A stretch of 64,000 bases of DNA from Candidatus Eiseniibacteriota bacterium (GCA_963707915.1 OY970178.1:3104001-3168000); one strand, 5' to 3'; numbered from the stretch's first letter, positions 41,117-52,855 are shown. Notes: generated by a model from the letters alone, not told the origin. Translations and numbers: made by a program.

Positions 41117-41346
41117 GGAGTGTCCCCATTCCTCGGACCACCGGTCATGACAGGGGCTTCGGCGTGATGGGGTGGACCTCGGGCTTCATCGCCGCGCGGG
41201 GAACAGGTATCTTCGAAGCGCGGCGCCGCGACCGGGAAGACGCAGCTTCCGGCGCGCGCCGCCCGCATCTGGAACCGACGGGCGTCGCGCGGGATGATCA
41301 CCCGCGTCCCCCGGGGGCATCTGCATCATCTCGTCTGGAGGATGGT

Positions 41347-42872
41347 ATGCGAGCTCGGGTCGTCGCCCGGCTTCTCGCCCTGGCGCTGGTGGTGTCGTCG
41401 CCGTGCCCGGCGCAGGCGGGCACGGTGCGCATCGAGAGCGGGGGGATCGATAGGCGTCCCGAGCGGCCTGCCCGGCGTCCTCGTCTTCAGGGGGGTGCCC
41501 TATGCGCGGCCGCCGGTCGGGGCGCTCCGGTGGCAGCCGCCGCAGCCGCCGGCGGCGTGGAGCGGTGTGCGCAGGGCCGACGGCGTCGCTCCGTGCTGCC
41601 AGCAGGTGCCGTGGTCGGCGCCGCCCTGGACGGCGGAGTTCGTCACGCAGGAGCGGACGAGTGAGGACTGCCTCGACCTCAACCTCTGGACCGCGCAAGC
41701 CTCAGGCCGCACGAAGCGCCCGGTGCTCGTGTGGCTGCACGGCGGCGCGCTGACCGGAGGATCCGGCGCGGTGGCCGTGTACGACGGCGCCCAGCTCGCC
41801 CGTCGCGGCCTCGTGGTGGTGACCGTCAACTACCGGTTGGGCGCACTCGGCTTCCTCGCGCATCCCGGGCTGAGCGCGGAGTCCCCGCGGCACGTCTCCG
41901 GGAACTACGGGCTGCTCGATTGCATCGCCGCGCTGCAGTGGGTCCGGCGGAACATCGCGGCCTTCGGTGGCGACCCCGGGCGAGTGACGATCGCCGGGCA
42001 GTCTGCGGGCGCCGACCTGGTCAGCGCGCTGATGCGCTCGCCCCTGGCGACAGGGCTCTTCCACCGCGCCATCCTGATGAGCGGGGGCTCGTCCGACGGA
42101 TACCCTGCCGCTCGCCGAGGCCGAGCGGCAGGGCGCGGCGTGGGCGAGGACCTTCCAGGACAGCTCGCTCGCGGCGCTGCGCGCGCTGCCCGCCGCCGGA
42201 ACCATGGTCGGCGGGCGCTTCGGGCTCGTGGCGGACGGCTGGTGCCTTCCCGCGAACGGATCGACCGCTCCGGTGAGCGACGTGCCGATCCTCTTTGGCC
42301 TGACCGCGGACGAAGGCAGCAGTGACCCCACGTACGGCAAGGTCACGGCCGCGGAGTACGCGGCGTTCGCGCGCTCGCACCTGGACACGCTGGCGGACGA
42401 GGCGCTGCAGCTCTATCCGTTCTCCAACGACGAGCAGGCCGGGCTCGCGCAGAAGCAGAGCATGCGCGACCTCGGGCTCTTCCAGACCCTGCGCTGGGCG
42501 CGCGCGCGCGCCGCTCGGGACCACGCGCCACTGTACGCGTACTATTTCACGCGCGGCATCCCCTGGCCCGAGCATCCGGAGTTCGGCGCGTTCCACAGCT
42601 CCGACGTGCCCTATGCATTCGCGAACCTCCGGCTGCTGCAACGTCCCTGGCAGGAGGCCGATCGCCGCCTGTCCGAGACGCTCGCGGCGTACTGGGTCCG
42701 CTTCGCCCGGACGGGAGATCCGAATGGGCCGGGATTGCCGGAGTGGCCGGCGTTCGATCCCGGCGAGCCGCGGCTGCTGGAGCTGGGCGCGACCGTGGCC
42801 CCGCGCCCGATCCTCGAACCCCGGCGCGTGGAGTTCTACGAGAAGTGCCTGGCGCTTCCCCCGCGCGAGTAG
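41347..42872 (+). pseudogene. Secreted type-B carboxylesterase with two frameshifts (pseudogene or sequencing errors)
   Basis: FRGVPYARPPVGALRW, SEDCL.LN, WLHGG, GQSAG, GAFHSSD; frame changes at about 41445 and about 42104. Confidence 0.8.
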
Positions 42873-42943: not shown

Positions 42944-45919
42944 TCACTCCAGCAACGTCAACTTGCGCGTTCCGACCACACGGTCACCGAGCCGCATGCG
43001 CACGAAGTAGAGCCCCGCCGCGAGTCTCCGGCCGCTGGCGTCCGCCGGTCGCCAGGACGCCGACCATTCGCCGGCACTGCGCGCGCCCGGCTCCACCGAC
43101 GCCACCCGACGGCCAGCCATGTCGAGGACGTCGAACGCCACCTCGCCCTCGGCCCGCAACGCGTAGTCGATGCGCAGCGCGCCGCGGCCCGGGTTGGGCG
43201 AGATGCCGCCTAACGCGTCGCGGTCGGGACGTGGCGTGCCTTCCACGGTGACGGTTCCGCTCCGCAGTCCGACCTCGAAGATGCCTGCGCCCCCGTCGCG
43301 CACCACGACGACGCCGTACCAGCCGGTGACCGGCGCCGTGATCACCACGGACTGCTGACTCTCCACCAGCGCGCTCGCGCGACCCGTCCACAAGGGGCCG
43401 CCGGTGGGCGCGAAGACCAGCACCTTCGCATCGAGCCCGGGGCTGTGCGAGAACGTGAGGGTGTAGGTCTGGCCGGCGATCATGGGCGCATCCCAGCTCT
43501 CCACCAGGAAGTCGCTCGTTGTGGTGCGCACGTTGTCGGGCGCGTCGAGCGTCAGCTCCTGATGGCCTGGGAAGTACTCCACCAGTCCCGCATCGGCGCC
43601 GGTCCAGCGGATCGCGGAAGCGTAGTAGGTGGCGAACGAGTTGAAGTTGAAGTCGCCGACCACGACGTCCGCCTCGGGGTACATGGTCGAGTTCGCCAGC
43701 ATCCCGCTCAGGCACGTGCCGATCGCTCCACCTGTCGGCGACGAGTAGGCGTAGAGACTCCAGTCGCTGCTGCTCGTCAGTCCGGCCGCGGCGATCGCCG
43801 TCCAGTAGGGCAACGCCGGCGCGAACGAGACGAACGCCCTTGGCTCGGTCGGCACGATGAACGCCGGCCCCGGCGTGAGCGACACGATCGGCGGGCAGGT
43901 GCGCACCCTGATCGTGTAGGCGTCCGCCGCTCCGTTCTCGTTGACGACAACGACTCCATAGAATCCGCTGCTCGGCGCCGTGTACGTGTGGGCGCCCGCG
44001 CCGCTCTCGAACTCGGCCATCTGGCGGCCTGCCCAGTACTCGTAGCCGGTCTCGTTGCGGAACAGCATGAGCGTGAGGGAGGCGGCCGGACCGCTCGAGA
44101 GTTCGAACTCGTAGGCCTGCCCGGCCTCCAGGTACACGTCCCAGCAACCCACGACGTCGTCGGGTCCGGTGGTGCGCTGCGTGACGTTGTTGTCATTGGC
44201 GATGATCAGGTTCTCGCCGGAATCCCACTGCACGGCTGTCGACGACACGCTTTCGGCGCGGGGCTGCGCGGCGTTCAGATAGTAGGTGCCGGGCGTGTTG
44301 TAGTTGAAGTCGCCGACGACGACGGGTTGCCGCCCTGAGGGCACGCCATAGGACGTGGCAAAGGGCAGCGTGGTGCAGCTTGGCCACAGCGAACTGAGGT
44401 TGTCGCCGTTGAGGTTCAGCACCCATTCCGGGCTTTCGCCGCGCAATGCGGCGGCGGTCCAGTATCGGGCGGTCTGCGCGATCGAGAAGTACGCCGTCAT
44501 CACCATGCCGGTCGAGGCGGTAACGCCGGGCGAGAGCGCGGTCGGGAACGAGCAGTCGCCGAAGGTAACGCTGTAGTCGCCGGCAACCGCCGCATCGTTG
44601 ACGACCGCCACGCCGTACCATCCGCTCACCGGCGCGGTGTAGGTGGTCGGCCCCGCCCCGCCCCCTGGCGAGCTCAGGACGGCCGCGGACCTACCGGCAA
44701 AGTACGCGCCGCCGCCGCTGTTGGCGAACAACAGCAACGTCCGACCGATGGGGAGTGAGAGGATGAAGCGGTACGTGTGGCCGGCGTGCAAGTAGACGTC
44801 GTAGAAATCGGCGAGATCGCTGCCCGCCATGGACTCGAAATGCGGGAGGCTGTTGGTTTCGAGGATCCCCTGCGTACCGGTGAACTCGACTTCGCCCGCG
44901 GCCGCGCCGCTGAACAGGTGCGGGTAGACGAAGTACCAGCCCGCGGGTGAGAAGCTGAAGTCGCCCACCGTGAGGTCCACGCTGCCGGGGCCGAACCCCG
45001 AGGTGGCGAACAGCCCGTCGAAGCACGTCGGCGGACTGCCGCCGCTCGGCATGTCGTAGAGGCCGAGGTCCCAGTCTGCGGCCGAGGACCGGACCGCACA
45101 TCCCATCCAGAACGGGTCCCTCGCCTCGAAGGCCAGGTTCCCGTTCGGCAGAGCGACGACAACCGGCGTCTGCGCCGTGAGGGCCGAGGGGATCGGGCAG
45201 GTCGAAGCCGTGACGCCCAGCTTGTACGAGAGGGCGGTGCCGGCGTCGTTGGTGAGCACGAGGCCGTAGTAACCGGTCGTTGTCGGCGTGAAGGTCGTTG
45301 TGCCGGTGACGTCGAAGTGGGCTGCGCTGCGGCCGGCCCAGTAAGTGCCGCCCGTGATGTTGGCGAACAACATCAGGTGGGCCCCCGACCAGTTCGTGGG
45401 GAAGAAGTCGAACGTGTAGGTCGTGCCCGTGGACATGTAGACGTCCCAGACGCGGATCAGGTCGGATGTGGCCATCGATCCGGAGATCGCGGAGCCGTTG
45501 GGTACGATGACGTCGGGGCCGTCGTCCCACTGCACGGTCGCATTCCCTCCGGAGTATCGGGACACCGAGGGGTAGTAGGTGCCCGGCGCGTTGTGGTTGA
45601 AATCGCCGACGACGAAGTCCAGCACGCCGACTCCGGCGGTCGATGACGCCAGCAGGCCGGTGGGCGTGCAGGAAGGCTCTGGCGTGGTGCCCGAGTAGAG
45701 GAAGAGGTCCCAGTCCGCGCCCGGCTGCGGTCGCACCGCAACGGCAGTCCAGAAGGCCGAGGACTGCGCGAACTGACAGAGTGCCGGCGTGCTCGATACC
45801 GGCACCGCAGTGCCCGAGGTCAGCACTTGGGTCGGACATGCCGCACGCGCCGGGCCGGCGAGCGCGAGCGCAAGTACGACGGCGCTCGTCGTGTGGTGGA
45901 GAGCGATTCGGAGAGTCAT
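42944..45919 (-). CDS. Secreted 991-aa protein with four ~220-aa internal repeats and a FlgD-Ig/T9SS-A-like C-terminal domain
   Basis: Repeats start CPTQVL, CPIPSAL, CSFPTAL and CPPIVSL and share (F/Y)W.A, W.L, VGDF, (W/Y)D, AGR, G(Y/W/F)YG.V motifs; C-terminus SPNP...IDYAL...DMAGRRV...GLYFVR. Confidence 0.8.
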   Translation of the reverse strand: MTLRIALHHTTSAVVLALALAGPARAACPTQVLTSGTAVPVSSTPALCQFAQSSAFWTAVAVRPQPGADWDLFLYSGTTPEPSCTPTGLLASSTAGVGVLDFVVGDFNHNAPGTYYPSVSRYSGGNATVQWDDGPDVIVPNGSAISGSMATSDLIRVWDVYMSTGTTYTFDFFPTNWSGAHLMLFANITGGTYWAGRSAAHFDVTGTTTFTPTTTGYYGLVLTNDAGTALSYKLGVTASTCPIPSALTAQTPVVVALPNGNLAFEARDPFWMGCAVRSSAADWDLGLYDMPSGGSPPTCFDGLFATSGFGPGSVDLTVGDFSFSPAGWYFVYPHLFSGAAAGEVEFTGTQGILETNSLPHFESMAGSDLADFYDVYLHAGHTYRFILSLPIGRTLLLFANSGGGAYFAGRSAAVLSSPGGGAGPTTYTAPVSGWYGVAVVNDAAVAGDYSVTFGDCSFPTALSPGVTASTGMVMTAYFSIAQTARYWTAAALRGESPEWVLNLNGDNLSSLWPSCTTLPFATSYGVPSGRQPVVVGDFNYNTPGTYYLNAAQPRAESVSSTAVQWDSGENLIIANDNNVTQRTTGPDDVVGCWDVYLEAGQAYEFELSSGPAASLTLMLFRNETGYEYWAGRQMAEFESGAGAHTYTAPSSGFYGVVVVNENGAADAYTIRVRTCPPIVSLTPGPAFIVPTEPRAFVSFAPALPYWTAIAAAGLTSSSDWSLYAYSSPTGGAIGTCLSGMLANSTMYPEADVVVGDFNFNSFATYYASAIRWTGADAGLVEYFPGHQELTLDAPDNVRTTTSDFLVESWDAPMIAGQTYTLTFSHSPGLDAKVLVFAPTGGPLWTGRASALVESQQSVVITAPVTGWYGVVVVRDGGAGIFEVGLRSGTVTVEGTPRPDRDALGGISPNPGRGALRIDYALRAEGEVAFDVLDMAGRRVASVEPGARSAGEWSASWRPADASGRRLAAGLYFVRMRLGDRVVGTRKLTLLE

Positions 45920-46536
45920 CGCGAGCCTCCCTTCGCGATGCGACGAAGCTCCGCCTGCTTCTCGAGCTGCGCGGGCGCCAGCGGCGTGGGCGCGGGGTTG
46001 AGGATCGCGCCGGCCGCCAGCCGGTTCTCCGATGCAGACGACGGCGCACTGCGCGCGTGCGCCCGCTTCTCGGTGATCGCCGCGGCCCGCTCCGCCCCCA
46101 GCTTCGGATCCAGCGGCCGTGACGTAACGAGCGGGCCGGGCCTGGTGCGTACGTCACCCGCGGGCGCAGCGCCCGCGGGCAGCCCGAGCATCGTGGCGCG
46201 ATTGCGCTGCTGCATCCTCAGCAGCGCGCCAGACTGCTTCTCGGCCTGCGAATTCTCCGTCGGCCGGTCGGGGCCCGGCGGGCGCGAGGTCGCGACCGGC
46301 GGGGCCTTCGCATCGCCGAGCGCGAACGCCGCTGCCGGCGCCGGAATCGCCGCGTGGATCGACTCCAGCTTGATGCGTTGAGCGGCCGTGGGCGTGGGCG
46401 ATAGCGAAGGCGGCAGTTCGGTGCGCACCTCGGCGGGCTTGCCGGTGGCGTCCGGCGAGGAGTCACCGGCGAGCGCCGGATCGGGTGAGGCGCACAACGC
46501 TACCGCGCTGGCGAGAACCAGGAGAGCGCATTTCAT
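45916..46536 (-). CDS. Secreted Pro/Ala-rich low-complexity protein
   Basis: Signal peptide MKCALLVLASAVALCASPDPALA; GGAG RBS; ATGA overlap with the repeat protein. Confidence 0.6.
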   Translation of the reverse strand: MKCALLVLASAVALCASPDPALAGDSSPDATGKPAEVRTELPPSLSPTPTAAQRIKLESIHAAIPAPAAAFALGDAKAPPVATSRPPGPDRPTENSQAEKQSGALLRMQQRNRATMLGLPAGAAPAGDVRTRPGPLVTSRPLDPKLGAERAAAITEKRAHARSAPSSASENRLAAGAILNPAPTPLAPAQLEKQAELRRIAKGGSR

Positions 46537-46585
46537 GGGAGACTCCTCCGCGTCGAGGTGAAGAATCGGCATGGGGCTACCGCTC

Positions 46586-46612
46586 AAACGACCCGAGGCC
46601 GCGCGAATCACA
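46586..46612 (-). promoter_or_regulatory. Putative ECF-sigma promoter TGTGATTC-N14-CGTTT (target operon)
   Basis: Same motif and spacing as 49826-49852; lies 50 bp upstream of ATG 46536. Confidence 0.7.
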
Positions 46613-46930
46613 CGGGAAGTGCGGGCGCGAGGGATCCCCGAGGCGGGGCGGACGGGCCGTGCCGGGGGCCACCGGGAACGAGCTTGCGTCGGGCGAAGGG
46701 CCCGGCTTTACTTGCGCTCACGACGAGGGGTCTGCGTCCGCAAATGACCCCGAGCGGGGCCGGGACGTTCCGCCGGAGCCCGCGCCGGCGAACTCCCGAG
46801 CCGCGGCTGGAGGGTGGGTGTCGAATCCCGAAGGTCAACTCCACTGGGTCGGCGGGGCGCCCGCGGGCGCCGCGCCCCGTTGATCGACTTTTCCGTGGCC
46901 GCCACCCGGGCGGGGCCGGTCCGGCTGGGG

Positions 46931-49858
46931 ATGCTCCTCGCCGTGGTGTTGCTCGCGAGCGGCGCGGGTTCCACGCCGTCCGCGCCGGGGCGGGCCGCGG
47001 CGCCCGAGGTCGCCGGGCGCACGTCGCCGGGGGCTTCGGCCCCGGATCGCACTCCCGTCCAGCGCCGCACGCTCGCGCTCCTCGATTCGCTCTGGGCCGC
47101 GGGGAGGACCGATACGCTGTGGACGTGCGCGGAGGCCGCGTTGCGGACGGCCCGCGTCCGCGGCGACGCGAGGCTCACGCTCGATCTGCTGGCGACGCGC
47201 GGGCGGATGCGCGCGAGCCTCGGACTGATCGCGGAATCCGAGCCCGATCTACGAGCCGCCATCCGCATGGCGCGATCGGCCGGCGACGACTCGACGCTGC
47301 GGGCCAGCCTGCGATGGCTCGCCTATGCCCTGGATCGCGAGGGCAGGAACGACGAGGCGCTCCGCGCGTGGCAGCGTCTTCGCGCGCACTCGGAGCGGGC
47401 CGGCGACCTCGTGCACCAGGCGTGGGCCTGGTCGGGCATCGGCTTCCTGCGCTGGCAGTCGGGCGACCCCCGGGCCGCCGAGAGCGCCGACCTGCGGGCG
47501 CTGGGCCTCTTCCGCGCGGCGCACGACGAGCGCGGCGAGGCGTTCGTGCTGAACGCGCTGGGTGTGGTGGCGAACGCGCAGGGTGACTACCTCCGGGCCG
47601 ACCAGCGCTTCCGGCTCGCGGCCGCGAAGGCCGACCGTGCGCGGTGGACGTGGCTGGCGGCCGTTGCCTGGAACAACGTCGCGTCGCTCGAGCAATCGCT
47701 GGGCGATCCGGGGCGCGCCCGCACCCTGTACGTGAAGGCCGCCGAGTTGCATCGCCGCGCAGGTGACCTGGCGGAAGCCCTGGTGACGGGCGAGAACGTC
47801 GCGCGCTGCGACGCGGCGCTGGGCGCGTACGACGAGGCCGCCGCGGAGCTCGAGCTGCTCTTCCGGGAGTGTCGCGAGCACGGGATCGCACACCTGGAGG
47901 GCGGGCTTCGCAACGCGCTCGCCGACGTGCGCACCCGCCAGGGTCGCCCGCACGCGGCCGCCCGTCTCTATCGGGCGAACCTCGAGCGTGGAGCCTCGAT
48001 CACGGCGGATGCGCATCAGGAAGCGGTGCTCGGACTCGCCCGCACGCTTGCCGCCGTGGACAGCGTGCCGGCTGGCCTGGCGCTGATGCGCCGGGAGTCG
48101 AGCTGGATTCGCACGGCGGCGGACGCGATCGGTCGCGCCGAATGCGACGAGGAGCTGGGCGACTTGCTGCTGCGAGCAGGTCGCCCGCAGGAGGCGCTGC
48201 GGGTCCTGCTCTCCGCGGCCGCCGAAGCTCGCCGGCTGGGGGTCGGTGCGCCCCGCATCCGGGCTCTGGCCGGGGCCGCCCGGGCCGCGGAGCGTCTCGG
48301 CATGCGCGATCGCGCGCTGGCGCTGCTCCGCGAGGCACTCGGCGTGTGGGAAGTGGAGCGGGGCCTGCCCGCCGATCCCGAGTGGCGTGAGGTGCGTGGT
48401 GTCGTTGCCGCGGACGTGGTTGCGAGCCTGGGAAGGCTGCTGCTCGTGCTCCCGCCCGACGCCTCCCCTGCCGAGCGCGCCCGGCACGCATTCGACGCGG
48501 TGCAGGCGTTCAAGGCGCGCACGTTGATGGAGCGCATGCTCGGCCCCGCGCGCGGCGACACGTCGTCACCCGCGGCGATCCCGACCACCTGCACGGAGCT
48601 ACAGCGTCGGGTGCTTCGCCCCGGGGAGCTGATGCTCGACTTCTACCTCGGGGCGGATTCCGGGCTGGTGTTCGTCGTGAGTCGCGAGGAGTGTCGCGCC
48701 TACCGCATTCCGCCGCGGCGCGAACTCGAGTCGGTGCTCGCGCCGTACTCGCGAGCCGTCGCCGCGGCCGACGGGAGTGCGGAGCCCGCGAGGGGGCGCG
48801 ACGCCGGTCTGGCGCTCGCACATCGCAGCGTGCGCGAGTTGCTGCTCGGGCCGGCGCTCGATCGCATCGCGCGGAGCCGCAGCCTGATCGTGGTTCCCGA
48901 CGGCATCCTCGATCGCCTAAGCTTCGCCGCGCTGCTCGACGACCCTTCGCCGGACCCGGCGGCGCGTCGGCTCGCGCTGCAGACCGTGCCGTCCGCGTCG
49001 ATCCTCGCCCGACTGCGAGCGACGCTGGCCGACCGCCCGGCGTGGGTGCGTGACGGGCCGTCGATCCTCGCTCTCGCCGGCGGCAGGGACGCGAGCGGCA
49101 ACCGACTCTCCGGCGCGCTGGGCGAAGTCCGGGACCTCGCCTCCGACTTCCGCCGCGTCTCCCTCGCGCTGCCCGGGACGCCGTCGCCCCCGCGGGCGGG
49201 TCCGGTGGACTCGATCCGCGCGGCGGAACTCCGCGGGACGGCGCTGCTCGAGCGCGCGGCGGGTTACGATGTGCTCCACTTCGCGGCGCACACCACGATC
49301 GACGAGCAACGTCCCTGGCGATCCTCGCTCCGCCTCGGCGACGAGACCGACCCGGGGCGGCTACTGCGCCTGACCGGCTCGGCCATCGCGCGATCGACGC
49401 TCTCCGCGCGGCTGGTCGTCCTGTCGACCTGTCGTTCTGCCGACGGCCGGTTGCTGCCGGGGGAAGGCGTGCAGGGGCCGGCGGCGGCGTTCCTGGTCGC
49501 TGGGGTTCCGGCCGTGGTCGCGGCGCTGTGGCCGGTGCAGGACGCCGATGCCCGCTGGATGATGCGACGCCTCTACCTCCACCTGGCGGAGGGTGCGACC
49601 GTGGGCGAAGCGCTGTCGCTGGCCCAGTCGGACGCGCGCAGGACCGCCGAGCGATTCCGTTCGGCGCGCTGGGCGGGCTATGTCGTCGTCGGCGACGGCG
49701 ACTTGCGGATTCCGATTCGACGCAGGACGCTTGCGGAACGCTTCGGGCTCCCGGCCGCGCTCCTGCTGTTCGGATGCGCGGCGGTCCTCGGCTGGCTTCT
49801 CCGGCCACCTGACATCAAGAGGGAATGTGATTCCCGCGAACCGTCGGCGTTTCCATGA
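46931..49858 (+). CDS. TPR-CHAT (caspase-HetF-like) protease with N-terminal signal and C-terminal TM helix
   Basis: TPR-like helical repeats, FKARTL, LIVVPDGIL..LSFAAL, catalytic His (VLHFAAH) and Cys (LVVLSTC), ALWPVQD, WAGYVVVGD, C-terminal hydrophobic helix. Start uncertain. Confidence 0.88.
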   Translation: MLLAVVLLASGAGSTPSAPGRAAAPEVAGRTSPGASAPDRTPVQRRTLALLDSLWAAGRTDTLWTCAEAALRTARVRGDARLTLDLLATRGRMRASLGLIAESEPDLRAAIRMARSAGDDSTLRASLRWLAYALDREGRNDEALRAWQRLRAHSERAGDLVHQAWAWSGIGFLRWQSGDPRAAESADLRALGLFRAAHDERGEAFVLNALGVVANAQGDYLRADQRFRLAAAKADRARWTWLAAVAWNNVASLEQSLGDPGRARTLYVKAAELHRRAGDLAEALVTGENVARCDAALGAYDEAAAELELLFRECREHGIAHLEGGLRNALADVRTRQGRPHAAARLYRANLERGASITADAHQEAVLGLARTLAAVDSVPAGLALMRRESSWIRTAADAIGRAECDEELGDLLLRAGRPQEALRVLLSAAAEARRLGVGAPRIRALAGAARAAERLGMRDRALALLREALGVWEVERGLPADPEWREVRGVVAADVVASLGRLLLVLPPDASPAERARHAFDAVQAFKARTLMERMLGPARGDTSSPAAIPTTCTELQRRVLRPGELMLDFYLGADSGLVFVVSREECRAYRIPPRRELESVLAPYSRAVAAADGSAEPARGRDAGLALAHRSVRELLLGPALDRIARSRSLIVVPDGILDRLSFAALLDDPSPDPAARRLALQTVPSASILARLRATLADRPAWVRDGPSILALAGGRDASGNRLSGALGEVRDLASDFRRVSLALPGTPSPPRAGPVDSIRAAELRGTALLERAAGYDVLHFAAHTTIDEQRPWRSSLRLGDETDPGRLLRLTGSAIARSTLSARLVVLSTCRSADGRLLPGEGVQGPAAAFLVAGVPAVVAALWPVQDADARWMMRRLYLHLAEGATVGEALSLAQSDARRTAERFRSARWAGYVVVGDGDLRIPIRRRTLAERFGLPAALLLFGCAAVLGWLLRPPDIKRECDSREPSAFP
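49826..49852 (+). promoter_or_regulatory. Putative ECF-sigma autoregulatory promoter TGTGATTC-N14-CGTTT
   Basis: Inside the 3' end of the CHAT gene; the -10 box ends 5 nt before ATG 49858, which fits a leaderless mRNA. Confidence 0.7.
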
Positions 49859-50463
49859 TGAAGCCGGACGCTGAGGATCCCCGAAGCGACGAGGATCTGG
49901 CGCTCCTGGCCGCGGGCTGCCCGGATAGTCCGGCCGGGAGGAAGGCGGCGTGCACGGTTCTCGAACGCTACGCACGGGTCGTCTACCGCTGGTGCTATTC
50001 CTACGTCGGCAACGTCGAACAGGCCGAGGATCTCGCGCAGGACGTGCTGCTACGCGCCTACCGTCACCTCGGGGACTTCGAGGGATGGGGACGATTCTCG
50101 GCCTGGCTCTTCGTGATCACGCGCAACCTCTGCCTGGACGCGGTGCGGCGCGACGCGCGTCGGAAGCGCGAGGAGATCGAGTTGGATCGGCTCGCCGACC
50201 CCGCTCCGGGGCCGGAGGCCGAGTTGGCCGCGCGCCGGGAAGAGGAGCGCACGTTGTCGCTGATTCGAGAGCATCTGTCGGAGCAGGAGCAGGACGCGCT
50301 CTGGCTCCGCTGCTTCGAACGCATGCCCCTCGACGCCATCACCCGTGTGCTCGGTATCACGCAACGCAGTGGAGCGCGCGCGGTGCTCCAGAACGCCCGG
50401 CGCAAGCTCCGCGCGGCGTTGGGCGATGCGCATCCGCTGGCCCGGGAGGGGGACGATGACTGA
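49855..50463 (+). CDS. ECF RNA polymerase sigma factor
   Basis: AEDLAQDVLLRAY, FSAWLFVITRNLCLD, region 4 LSEQEQDALWLR...ARRKLR. Confidence 0.9.
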   Translation: MMKPDAEDPRSDEDLALLAAGCPDSPAGRKAACTVLERYARVVYRWCYSYVGNVEQAEDLAQDVLLRAYRHLGDFEGWGRFSAWLFVITRNLCLDAVRRDARRKREEIELDRLADPAPGPEAELAARREEERTLSLIREHLSEQEQDALWLRCFERMPLDAITRVLGITQRSGARAVLQNARRKLRAALGDAHPLAREGDDD

Positions 50464-51277
50464 ACGATGCCCGACGCTGCGCGAGCTCCTCGCGCTGGTG
50501 GACCGCGTGCCCGGTGGCGACGCCGCCCACGGCGTGAGCGGCGCCCCGAGCCAGCCGCCGCCGATCCCCACCGACGCGGGCGCCTCCAACCCGCCGCTCC
50601 CGGATGACACCTGGGCGCACGTCCGCAGTTGTCCGCGGTGCCGGAGTCTGCTGGCGGCCTACCACGAGTTCGAGTCGCCGCAGGTCCGAGATCGCTGCGA
50701 GGGCGAGCCCGAGGCAGTGGCGCGCCTGGGCGCATTCCTCGAGTCGATGATCGTCGGGCCCGGCGCCGCCCCGACCGTGGCCGCGATCCCCGGGGCCCGA
50801 CGGCTTGCGGGTGGCAGGGCGGGGGAAGCCACGCGGGTCGGGGAGATCTTCCGTCTACTCACCGGGTCCGGCCGCCTGGTTCCCGTGGCCGGCGCGGCAG
50901 CCATCGTCGCGGCGGTGTTCCTGTTGGTGCGCGGGAACGTGGATACGGCTCTGCGCTCCACCGTGCTTCGCGAGCAGCCGGCCGAATCCGCAGTCGGCAG
51001 TATCGTCGTCTTCCCACCGCGCCCGGTTGCGGGACGCGGGCTCGAGTTGCGCTGGAGGCGCGGGGGACCCGACGACACCTACCGGGTCCGCCTGCTCGAT
51101 TCCGGGATGCGCGAGGTCGGGTGTGTGGAGGCGGGACGTGAGACGCTTCTGGTACTCGCCACGTCGGCGCTTACCGGCCCGCGCCTCCCGGTCTTCTGGC
51201 AGGTGGAAGCGCTGCGCGAGGGCGATCGCGTCGGCGATTCTCCTCCCGGCGAGCTGCCTCTGCTGCGTGGGCGGTAG
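50456..51277 (+). CDS. Putative ZAS anti-sigma factor (HxxxCxxC, TM helix, periplasmic Ig/FN3-like domain)
   Basis: WAHVRSCPRC; TM LVPVAGAAAIVAAVFLLV; overlaps the sigma stop. Confidence 0.75.
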   Translation: MTERCPTLRELLALVDRVPGGDAAHGVSGAPSQPPPIPTDAGASNPPLPDDTWAHVRSCPRCRSLLAAYHEFESPQVRDRCEGEPEAVARLGAFLESMIVGPGAAPTVAAIPGARRLAGGRAGEATRVGEIFRLLTGSGRLVPVAGAAAIVAAVFLLVRGNVDTALRSTVLREQPAESAVGSIVVFPPRPVAGRGLELRWRRGGPDDTYRVRLLDSGMREVGCVEAGRETLLVLATSALTGPRLPVFWQVEALREGDRVGDSPPGELPLLRGR

Positions 51278-51685: not shown

Positions 51686-52855
51686 ATGTTCCGGCGCTTC
51701 CTCGACCTCCCCGCCCTTGCTGCCGAGCGGAGTTTCTTCCTGCTCGGGCCTCGCCAGACGGGCAAGTCCACGCTGTTGCGGGCCTCCTTTCCGGATGCGC
51801 TGTTTCTCGACTTGCTGGACGCGCAGACGTTCCGCTCGTTGGCGGTGGCCCCGAACCTGATCGGTGAGCGCGCGCGAGCATTGAAGGGGCGTCACCGCGT
51901 TGTCATCGTCGATGAGATCCAGAAGTTGCCCGAGCTGCTTGACGAGATTCACCGGCTCATGGAACTCGACAAGTCCCTGCGCTTCATCCTCACCGGGAGC
52001 AGCACGAGGAAGCTCCGCACTCGCGGGCGAAACCTGCTCGGTGGCAGAGCCGGGCTGGTGCGGATGCATCCGATCGCATACCCGGAGCTGGGGACTGCCA
52101 GCCGACCTCATTCCTGGGCGGACATGCTTCGATGGGGCGGGCTTCCCTCGGTGCTCGGTTCGAAGACGTCGAAGGACGATCTCCAGGCCTACGTGGGCCT
52201 CTATCTCCAGGAGGAGATCAGGGCCGAGGGGTTGGCGCGCTCCGTTCCGAACTTCAGTCGGTTCCTCGAGACCGCGGCCGCCATGAACGGCGAGACCCTG
52301 AACTACACGAAACTGGGCAACGATGCACAGCTCTCACCGCGGACCGTGCGGGACTACTTCCAGATCCTGCAGGACACGTTGGTGGGCGATCTGCTTCCTC
52401 CCTTCCAGCACACCCGCACGCGCAAGGCCGTTGCCACGGAGAAGTTCTACTTCTTCGACATCGGGATGACGAACGCTCTCGTCGAGCGTTGGGCCGTTTC
52501 GCCGCGCACGCCGGAATACGGTCGTCTGCTCGAGCACCTGGTCGAGCGCGAGATCAGGGCCTCGATGGACTACCTCAGAAACGACCGTCATCTGTTCTTC
52601 TGGCGCACGCTGTCGCGGCTGGAAGTCGACTTCGTCGTCGCGGAAGGGCAGAAGCCCGTGGTGGCGATCGAGGTGAAGGCTTCGCGGTCGGTCTCCCAGC
52701 AGGACCTCAAAGGCCTCCGGGCGTTCGCCGAAGACTGGCCGCGGGTTCGCAAGGTCGTGGTGTCGCTGGAGCCCCACCTACGCACGACGGAGGATGGCGT
52801 GGAGATCGTGCCGGTGGAGGAGTTCCTGGCTCGGCTCTGGGGTAAGGCGATTTGA
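51686..52855 (+). CDS. AAA+ ATPase with DUF4143 nuclease-like C-terminal domain
   Basis: GPRQTGKST, IVDEIQK, ILTGSS, KFYFFDIG, FFWRT...EVDFV...IEVK. Confidence 0.88.
   Translation: MFRRFLDLPALAAERSFFLLGPRQTGKSTLLRASFPDALFLDLLDAQTFRSLAVAPNLIGERARALKGRHRVVIVDEIQKLPELLDEIHRLMELDKSLRFILTGSSTRKLRTRGRNLLGGRAGLVRMHPIAYPELGTASRPHSWADMLRWGGLPSVLGSKTSKDDLQAYVGLYLQEEIRAEGLARSVPNFSRFLETAAAMNGETLNYTKLGNDAQLSPRTVRDYFQILQDTLVGDLLPPFQHTRTRKAVATEKFYFFDIGMTNALVERWAVSPRTPEYGRLLEHLVEREIRASMDYLRNDRHLFFWRTLSRLEVDFVVAEGQKPVVAIEVKASRSVSQQDLKGLRAFAEDWPRVRKVVVSLEPHLRTTEDGVEIVPVEEFLARLWGKAI

Follow-up and report, generated by a model that had tools for sequence, protein, structure and literature searches.

The locus described here lies in the genome of a Candidatus Eiseniibacteriota bacterium (GCA_963707915.1, OY970178.1). 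It encodes a tetratricopeptide repeat (TPR)-CHAT protein, a sigma factor of the extracytoplasmic function (ECF) type, and a predicted single-pass anti-sigma factor, and it adjoins a divergent two-gene operon for a secreted repeat protein. The window that was analyzed is a stretch of 64,000 nt, positions 3,104,001-3,168,000 of a single contig of 3,623,634 bases (3.62 Mb genome, 72% G+C). A first-pass annotation, made by a model from the sequence alone, had proposed that the CHAT protease cleaves the anti-sigma factor and that the freed sigma factor induces the secreted protein. That interpretation is partly supported: the architecture, the promoters, and the target are supported, and the cleavage step, which we infer, can now be stated more specifically. 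The main system for comparison is DdvA/DdvS of Myxococcus (M. xanthus), in which, according to parts of PMC11506125, the anti-sigma factor DdvA carries a fused periplasmic TPR-CHAT region. The features of the locus are listed below in window coordinates.

46814-49858, plus strand: TPR-CHAT protein, 1014 amino acids (aa) from GTG 46814 (Pfam)
49855-50463, plus strand: ECF sigma factor, 202 aa (Pfam, NCBIfam)
50456-51277, plus strand: predicted single-pass anti-sigma factor, 273 aa (alignments, AlphaFold2 model, Foldseek)
45916-46536, minus strand: Ala/Pro-rich protein with a signal-like N-terminus, 206 aa, putative target operon gene 1 (open reading frame list)
42944-45919, minus strand: predicted secreted repeat protein with a C-terminal FlgD_ig / type IX secretion system (T9SS)-like tail, 991 aa, putative target operon gene 2
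49277-49291, plus strand: HFAAH codons, catalytic His region with H822 and H826 (translation)
49430-49432, plus strand: codon of the catalytic Cys873, in LSTC (translation)
50618-50641, plus strand: HVRSCPRC codons, H-x3-C-x2-C zinc motif, residues 55-62 (translation)
50963-50974, plus strand: V170-L171-R172-E173 codons, juxtamembrane V-L-R-G motif, candidate site-1 cleavage site (translation)
49826-49852, plus strand: putative sigma-proximal ECF-type promoter TGTGATTC-N14-CGTTT, within the last CHAT codons (motif scan, comparison)
46586-46612, minus strand: second exact copy of the putative promoter, divergent from the CHAT gene (motif scan)

The three genes on the plus strand overlap. The CHAT stop codon TGA (49856-49858) overlaps the sigma ATG at 49855 within ATGATG, the first two sigma codons. 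At the next junction, the overlap between the anti-sigma ATG (50456) and the sigma stop codon (50461-50463) is 8 nt, and a GGGAGGGGG stretch precedes this ATG. Because the genes overlap in this way, the trio appears to be translationally coupled, as the first-pass annotation had it. Alternative starts of the TPR-CHAT gene are GTG 46919 and ATG 46931. By coordinates, the first codon of the 991-aa gene (which ends at 45919) overlaps the stop codon of the 206-aa gene (45916-45918).

The sigma factor belongs to the ECF (group 4) sigma-70 family. At a length of 202 aa, it matches Sigma70_r2 (E 2.9e-20) and the whole-protein model TIGR02937, the latter with 94.1 bits against a cut-off of 42.9 (E 6.6e-27). 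Sigma70_r4 reaches 19.3 bits, under its cut-off of 24.1, and the best NCBIfam equivalog, NF058625, reaches 82.3 bits, under its cut-off of 130.

The third gene is, on sequence evidence, that of an anti-sigma factor from an unannotated family that combines a CHCC zinc-type domain, a transmembrane (TM) helix, and a fibronectin type III (FN3) domain. Its binding to the sigma factor is predicted from gene position, its start overlapping the sigma stop. The protein has no Pfam or NCBIfam match at E <= 0.01. Its layout consists of CHCC zinc-type N-terminal helices, a TM segment at residues 142-163, a disordered linker at 163-179, and an FN3-like ectodomain at 185-265. In the AlphaFold2 model (mean predicted local distance difference test [pLDDT] score 70.5), helices are formed by residues 8-16, 50-58, 60-73, and 84-99, and the TM segment is followed by the linker at low confidence (pLDDT < 50) and by a confident beta-sandwich that corresponds to the ectodomain. 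The best PDB matches of this beta-sandwich in Foldseek are FN3 domains, and the anti-sigma profile searched against PDB sequences gave weak FN3 matches only, with no similarity to DdvA. The first-pass annotation had named the protein an HxxxCxxC-TM-Ig anti-sigma factor. The zinc motif and the TM segment are present as named, and Ig is an acceptable description of a domain with FN3 as its closest match.

Homologues of the anti-sigma factor share this layout. In 15 locus homologues, the zinc motif is followed by one hydrophobic helix and then by a conserved C-terminal domain; H55, C59, and C62 (H-x3-C-x2-C) are invariant in all 15 and are accompanied by an upstream Cys. A larger alignment of 94 members consisted of the window protein, 13 proteins from related loci, and 80 representatives, with ~25-35% identity to the window protein. 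In this alignment C5, H55, C59, and C62 are at least 90% conserved. An H-x3-C-x2-C motif with an upstream Cys/His ligand within an N-terminal helical domain is the feature of zinc-binding anti-sigma (ZAS)-type proteins, although the window protein has no match to zf-HC2 (PF13490) at E <= 0.1.

Only two columns of the 94-member alignment are invariant, R172 and W200 (the FN3 core tryptophan). R172 is part of a V-L-R-G motif (V in 49 members, L in 85, R in 94, and G in 80) that lies 7-19 residues (median 11) past the hydrophobic helix, within a variable Pro/Gly-rich linker. A short invariant motif in a disordered juxtamembrane linker is what a site-1 cleavage site would be expected to look like. 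Three possible cut sites had been suggested earlier in this linker, LVRG, LRS, and LRE. The third aligns with V-L-R-G and contains the invariant Arg, so that it stands as a candidate site, but the first two do not align with the motif.

The family is large and unannotated. Against 1.84 billion representative proteins, the anti-sigma profile found 9926 matches at E <= 1e-3, 2159 at E <= 1e-10, and 654 at E <= 1e-30, the last being clusters at 50% identity. Most of the best 150 matches are full-length proteins of 216-273 aa. A word-indexed protein search with the anti-sigma alignment found seven proteins, all unnamed or "hypothetical" and without Pfam domains. Five giant proteins (P0014, P0015, P0058, P0130, and P0148; 2484-6828 aa) contain 22-37 matches each to the ectodomain profile and matched only through such repeated units; proteins of very large size thus also employ the FN3-like unit as a repeat.

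The TPR-CHAT protein matches TPR_12 (E 1e-19) and CHAT (PF12770, E 4e-41, residues 674-961). The profile match together with a conserved His-Cys dyad places it in the CHAT group of clan CD. The catalytic residues, reported earlier as retained, are found in HFAAHT (H822/H826) and LSTC (C873), and all three are invariant in the 17 module CHAT homologues that were aligned. The acidic residues E771, E884, and D910 are invariant as well. The AlphaFold2 model (mean pLDDT 80.8, predicted template modeling score 0.76) has 22 TPR helices between residues 81 and 515 (~11 TPR pairs), a CHAT domain at ~600-960, and a terminal helix at 973-995, which is taken as the C-terminal TM segment. In a Foldseek search with this model, human separase ranked first (5.9e-14), DdvA (8rw5) ranked fourth (E 1.3e-13) with 17% identity, the highest in the top ten, and 8rot ranked tenth; chains of craspase Csx29 were matched too (8eey_B, E 1.7e-12). 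By sequence, phmmer against PDB found designed TPR proteins only and no match to DdvA.

Export of the TPR-CHAT protein is suggested by features at both of its ends. By hydropathy and by eye, a hydrophobic N-terminal stretch resembling a signal is present in eight of nine CHAT homologues inspected, in several of them with an Ala-x-Ala-like end, and in eight of nine a C-terminal hydrophobic helix leads into a basic tail. The TPR-CHAT body is thus predicted to be periplasmic or extracytoplasmic, like the anti-sigma ectodomain, because of the signal-like N-terminus and the DdvA precedent. This agrees with the first-pass annotation, which had called the protein probably extracytoplasmic and had stated that its proposal would fail if the protease and the anti-sigma ectodomain lay in different compartments. 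The protease looks intact and exported. In most module CHAT proteins a conserved basic cluster (L/I-x-R-R-like) is found just before the C-terminal membrane helix (~960-972 in the window protein).

The TPR-CHAT, sigma, and anti-sigma genes are, by comparative sequence analysis, a conserved unit. The genome of the window has exactly two CHAT genes and exactly two anti-sigma-family genes, and they adjoin in both cases. We compared 41 genomes (the window's own and 40 relatives). The anti-sigma profile has 33 matches in 15 of these genomes, and PF12770 has 122 matches in 31 of them (a tally that includes five matches from the unpublished genome G026). By coordinates compared by hand, a CHAT match lies no more than 3 kb away on the same contig for 21 of the 33 anti-sigma matches; for 10 there is no such match, and two are at contig ends. 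All 15 genomes that hold the anti-sigma family also hold CHAT genes. Gene order, determined by tblastn, is CHAT, sigma, anti-sigma in most loci; a few (L021, L035) have sigma, anti-sigma, CHAT. In one uncultured bacterium (L028; CHAT protein 49% identical), no sigma gene was found after the CHAT gene by tblastn at E <= 1e-3; a 204-aa open reading frame (ORF) upstream of that CHAT gene may be a sigma factor. In a wider sample of the phylum, the anti-sigma family (E <= 1e-20) occurs in 48 of 151 genomes and 27 of 72 genera, with up to eight matches per genome.

The second module of the same genome (L013, ~435000-444100 in genome coordinates) has the order target, CHAT, sigma, anti-sigma, with the CHAT/anti-sigma pair at ~440-444 kb. 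The target there, 1405 aa long, is an FG-GAP protein that ends in a FlgD_ig tail, and the module has its own promoter variant before both sigma and target. Many TPR-CHAT proteins of 900-1300 aa occur in the relatives (G001-G040), with up to 14 matches per genome. A supposed fused form (L043, 4048-8109, minus strand) was rejected, because its open frame of 1354 aa has no CHAT domain and runs from the anti-sigma frame into a repeat protein with a FlgD-type tail; this frame could result from a frameshift or a fusion, or could be a stop-to-stop artefact.

The bipartite motif TGTGATTC-N14-CGTTT occurs in two exact copies, one before the sigma gene and one before the divergent operon, as the first-pass annotation had noticed. 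These are the only matches in the window even when up to two mismatches are allowed (expected 0.22), and two of 100 window shuffles reached two matches. The first-pass annotation had advised a genome scan for the motif. On both strands of the genome, the same two copies are the only exact matches, and TGTGATTC alone occurs 10 times. The copies are 3.2 kb apart, and each is correctly oriented toward a gene. From the end of the sigma-proximal copy it is 2 nt to ATG 49855 and 5 nt to ATG 49858. The second copy lies ~50 nt upstream of position 46536, where the 206-aa gene has its ATG, itself preceded by a GGAGGAG-like ribosome site.

A comparable element is found before related sigma genes. When the upstream regions of 28 sigma genes, window included, were compared, 26 had [G/C]TGA[C/T], a 16-nt spacer, and a CGTCC, ACTCC, or GTCTC-like block (GTGAY-N16-CGTCC-like); the element was not seen upstream of the L039 and L042 sigma genes. 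Automatic extraction found it in 23 of 23 loci, a set that left out the window, the near-duplicates L025 and L034, and also L039 and L042. The element is kept at the DNA level while the CHAT C-terminal tails that it overlaps differ in sequence. The start codon is usually 1-4 nt past an 8-nt -10 block, and in most loci ~11 nt separate the start of this block from the ATG. Because this distance implies a transcript start at or next to the start codon, the sigma mRNA is probably leaderless, and in the window the second ATG (49858) fits best. Two adjacent ATGs open the window's sigma gene (49855-49860). The first overlaps the CHAT stop (ATGA) and suits coupling on a read-through mRNA, and the second sits at the expected start of a leaderless transcript from the internal promoter; the sigma gene may therefore be expressed in two ways. 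Transcripts are predicted to begin at ~49855-49860 for the sigma gene and at ~46575-46582 for the divergent operon.

Variants of the promoter appear to be specific to each locus. Each of 22 loci was searched with its own sigma-proximal site (15 scored positions, fixed spacing, up to two mismatches), and a second site was found in six: the window, L013, L016, L018 (two sites), L022, and L040, against an expectation of 0.000-0.10 per locus. The second copy in the window has two mismatches at the 15 scored positions relative to the sigma-proximal site (expected 0.000). The -10 variant goes with the locus; in L022, for example, the same block is present at both sites. When ~7.2 million positions of the window's own genome were scored with a family matrix for which only 20 relatives had served as training set, the sigma promoter of the paralogous module ranked second and that of the window 12th. 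It is strongly supported by these comparisons that the motif behaves like an autoregulated ECF promoter, as had been proposed, with locus-specific variants before the sigma gene and the neighboring secreted-protein gene; promoter activity as such is inferred from sequence statistics and comparison. The regulon of the window's sigma factor appears to be local, since there is no further convincing site in the genome. Locus-specific promoter pairs and a probably leaderless sigma mRNA could provide compact, orthogonal reporter parts.

Other candidate sites were considered. The top match of the matrix genome-wide (89584-89615 in genome coordinates, plus strand, 20.9 bits) is apparently intergenic, and no downstream target was identified for it. 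Two genome matches to a looser motif were rejected as regulon members, one at 647221 (inside a 671-aa ORF) and one at 1823454 (context unclear). A CRP-type palindrome was rejected by eye as the reason for TGTGA, as no TCACA is present at the right spacing in the upstream sequences. A simple scan for sigma-70 promoters and terminators gave nothing useful.

The putative target operon encodes two proteins. The 991-aa protein has a FlgD_ig domain (PF13860) at residues 923-975 (E 4.6e-8, 33.4 bits against a cut-off of 27); its match to Por_Secre_tail (TIGR04183) is 19.4 bits, under the cut-off of 23, so it stays below the threshold for T9SS cargo. Four repeats of ~225-240 aa are visible by eye and from staggered tblastn matches, although a blastp self-comparison at E <= 1e-3 detected none. 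Its nearest Atlas clusters have PPC and Por_Secre_tail (scores 0.95 and 0.94), which serves as a lead only. In L033 and L034, full-length relatives of this protein come directly after the trio. Neither Pfam nor NCBIfam matches the 206-aa protein, and tblastn found no match to it in 31 related loci. Genes behind second promoter sites encode proteins of 850-1500 aa with FlgD_ig tails and differing bodies, which include FG-GAP repeats (L013, L020) and beta-helix or NosD-like domains (L021, L022, L040). The locus also hints at the way in which an uncultured phylum times the deployment of very large surface proteins.

We consider it slightly better than an even chance that the locus is a split, trans-acting trans-envelope switch of the DdvA/DdvS type. 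In the resting state, the cytoplasmic CHCC zinc domain of the anti-sigma factor would keep the ECF sigma factor at the inner membrane. The TPR-CHAT protein would be exported by its N-terminal signal and tethered by its C-terminal helix, with the TPR array and the caspase-like domain in the periplasm beside the FN3 ectodomain. A periplasmic cue might, purely by conjecture, bind the TPR array and activate the His826/Cys873 site. The protease would then cut the juxtamembrane linker of the anti-sigma factor, most likely after Arg172, ~11 residues from the membrane, and an RseP-type site-2 protease would remove the stub and release sigma. Free sigma would transcribe its own gene from the leaderless start, which would also renew the anti-sigma factor, and it would transcribe the divergent operon for the 206-aa protein and the 991-aa secreted repeat protein. 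A further proposal, that a large unannotated anti-sigma family is cut in trans by operon-encoded periplasmic TPR-CHAT proteases after the invariant Arg of V-L-R-G, with a promoter variant and a giant surface protein for each sigma factor, is more tentative, and we put it somewhat short of an even chance. If it is true, these loci would be orthogonal "surface protein on demand" switches, with up to eight anti-sigma matches per genome.

Several lines of evidence bear on the cleavage step. Separase, the closest structural match of the CHAT model, cleaves after Arg. The genome encodes an RseP-type protease (Peptidase_M50, 192 bits). The first-pass annotation had suggested an AlphaFold model of the complex. 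A complex prediction was made with CHAT residues 95-975 and anti-sigma residues 162-273. The score was 0.44 (runs 0.44, 0.50, and 0.01), compared with 0.00 for the best of three controls; the runs had at least 77% contact agreement, and partner pLDDT was at least 67. Of 157 solved complexes, 116 reached the mark, against two of 215 mismatched pairs; at scores of 0.60 or less it was reached by only 18 of those 157 and by both of the mismatched pairs that passed. The prediction thus gives weak support for the CHAT/anti-sigma pairing.

Other results weigh against the switch as proposed. The window anti-sigma factor reads VLRE where 80 of 94 members have G. Among the 33 anti-sigma genes, the 10 without a nearby CHAT gene (including L024-L026) conserve V-L-R-G just as well; because the motif is kept in such members, a specific link between it and CHAT is weakened, and V-L-R-G may serve another protease or another role. 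The association of the gene families is one-sided, as 101 of the 122 CHAT matches are not beside the anti-sigma family. The zf-HC2 threshold is passed by none of the 94 anti-sigma members, and seven match at E <= 0.1 (best E 0.017). Basic residues flank the C-terminal helix of the CHAT protein on both sides, so the positive-inside rule leaves its orientation ambiguous. For the promoter, the window's target site is outside the top 25 genome positions by the family matrix, and 16 of 22 loci have no second site at up to two mismatches, several of these loci being short contigs. In the complex prediction, one of the three runs stands at 0.01. According to parts of PMC11506125, CHAT cleavage is unproven even for DdvA.

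Some of these points fit another explanation, in which the sigma pair and its promoters work in the manner set out above, the TPR-CHAT protein serves as a sensor that is non-proteolytic or processes itself and that binds, releases, or shields the FN3 domain, and V-L-R-G is cut by another periplasmic protease or is a site-2 recognition element. The conservation of V-L-R-G where no CHAT gene is near and the weak complex prediction are in its favor, as is the description of the DdvA active site as incomplete and resting in parts of PMC11506125. A pure scaffold would hardly explain the invariant His/His/Cys of the 17 module CHAT proteins. Since every genome with the anti-sigma family holds CHAT genes, a trans-acting protease could also come from elsewhere in the genome. 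We regard the sensor explanation as unlikely.

The CHAT protease could instead act on the output of the system, by maturing or releasing the large secreted proteins or by removing their sorting domain, and would then be beside sigma only through shared cargo. In Bacteroidota, PorU, a clan CD peptidase, removes the C-terminal domains of T9SS cargo, and every target examined behind a second promoter is a large protein with a FlgD_ig / T9SS-like tail. FlgD_ig-tailed proteins may, however, simply be common in the phylum, and cargo bodies differ among modules (PPC-like, FG-GAP, beta-helix) while CHAT and anti-sigma stay alike. The CHAT protein is TM-tethered, presumably in the inner membrane. In the window, the stretch from the divergent target promoter to the start of CHAT has no motif copy, so that CHAT is not put under sigma by any copy; CHAT looks pre-made like a sensor and not cargo-induced. 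An action on cargo is somewhat less probable still than the sensor explanation. That adjacency is only historical, with the motif pair a chance or non-promoter repeat and CHAT without a functional tie to the sigma pair, draws on the modest window-only shuffle test and is very improbable, given only two exact, correctly oriented motif copies in ~7.2 Mb scanned, an element that recurs upstream of nearly all related sigma genes, the stop/start codon overlaps, and the 21 of 33 anti-sigma genes with an adjoining CHAT gene.

Neighboring genes that were examined encode PD40, phosphoenolpyruvate (PEP) mutase, carboxylesterase, and AAA/DUF4143 proteins. The carboxylesterase (PF00135) is split across two overlapping ORFs in different frames (41294-42872, plus strand), the N-terminal part covering profile positions 24-221 (41294-42325) and the C-terminal part positions 377-500 (42204-42872); the split reflects a frameshift or a pseudogene, or else an error of assembly. 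An AAA_14 and DUF4143 ATPase gene (51686-52855, plus strand) lies directly 3' of the anti-sigma gene, with no sign of membership in the module.

Several known systems link CHAT proteins to sigma factors. A literature search on split periplasmic CHAT/anti-sigma systems found none; it returned papers on DdvA or craspase and a review with a mention of ECF54. In Actinobacteria, ECF54 has a conserved context of CHAT/TPR, subtilase, and carboxypeptidase-regulatory-domain proteins, for which proteolytic regulation is proposed in parts of PMC8999054; its predicted promoter, GTATCAG / CTCC, is given in a part of the supplement of PMC7826278. The main text of that ECF re-classification does not mention CHAT, and later CHAT-linked groups in its supplement could be missed (PMC7826278). 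Like ECF54, the window has an ECF sigma factor with a conserved CHAT-TPR neighbor. ECF54 is restricted to Actinobacteria and has no anti-sigma factor, whereas the window has an anti-sigma factor and a GTGAY-N16-CGTCC-like promoter.

In craspase of type III-E clustered regularly interspaced short palindromic repeat (CRISPR) systems, Cas7-11 (gRAMP) with the TPR-CHAT protein Csx29 cleaves Csx30, which holds the sigma factor RpoE (parts of PMC10028731 and PMC11506125). The first-pass annotation had likened the locus to Csx29/Csx30. The likeness holds in that a TPR-CHAT protease is proposed to free sigma by cutting its inhibitor, and in the match between folds, but craspase is not the closest system; DdvA/DdvS is closer. 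Craspase works in the cytoplasm, is activated by an RNA guide together with its target, and is linked to CRISPR, whereas the window protease is predicted to be exported and membrane-tethered and its putative substrate is a transmembrane protein. The locus does not classify as type III-E craspase: the protease has export and anchor signals, and no cas gene is present among the neighboring genes examined, no dedicated scan for cas genes or CRISPR arrays having been run.

In classical regulated intramembrane proteolysis, RseA is cut by DegS and then RseP, and RsiW is cut by PrsW and then RasP. The proposed pathway likewise has a single-pass anti-sigma factor, a site-1 cut outside and near the membrane, and a site-2 M50 protease, for which a gene is present. 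It differs in the proposed site-1 enzyme, a clan CD caspase-like protease equipped with a TPR sensor array, whose gene belongs to the same operon. If this is true, caspase-like proteases would be dedicated site-1 proteases of regulated intramembrane proteolysis.

The closest likeness is to DdvA/DdvS. In both, an ECF sigma factor is held, or in the window is predicted to be held, by the CHCC zinc-type cytoplasmic domain of a single-pass anti-sigma factor, and a flexible juxtamembrane linker is proposed as the site of cutting before RseP acts. Parts of PMC11506125 describe RseP-dependent loss of truncated DdvA as shown, and a CHAT-mediated cut of its own linker as proposed by the authors without being shown; the authors state that this first cut cannot be validated until the trigger is known. 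DdvA is also described there as missing the three-helix motif (PMC11506125, in part). DdvA is one polypeptide, but the TPR-CHAT protein of the window comes from a gene of its own and has both a signal-like N-terminus and a predicted C-terminal anchor, and the anti-sigma ectodomain is a small FN3 domain of ~100 aa. The window proteins have no detectable sequence similarity to DdvA. DdvA/DdvS targets defense systems (CRISPR and the cyclic-oligonucleotide-based antiphage signaling system, CBASS), whereas the putative targets here are secreted repeat proteins. Fused DdvA-like proteins are reported, in the available parts of PMC11506125, only from Myxococcota and one Comamonas, and the window's anti-sigma family is found in nearly a third of the genomes sampled from its own phylum.

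Because DdvA/DdvS has already been described, the locus is less novel than the first-pass annotation implied; it is a split variant and not a categorically new system. What is new here is the FN3 anti-sigma family with its invariant arginine, the predicted leaderless promoter geometry, and the locus-specific promoter pairs. DdvA is the only studied anti-sigma factor with a periplasmic TPR-CHAT, and whether the caspase-like domain makes the first cut is the central question. In the split form, protease and substrate are separate proteins and the linker has a single invariant Arg, so the question reduces to a two-protein cleavage assay with C873A and R172A controls. The locus is an unusually clean way to test caspase-like proteases as site-1 proteases of anti-sigma factors.

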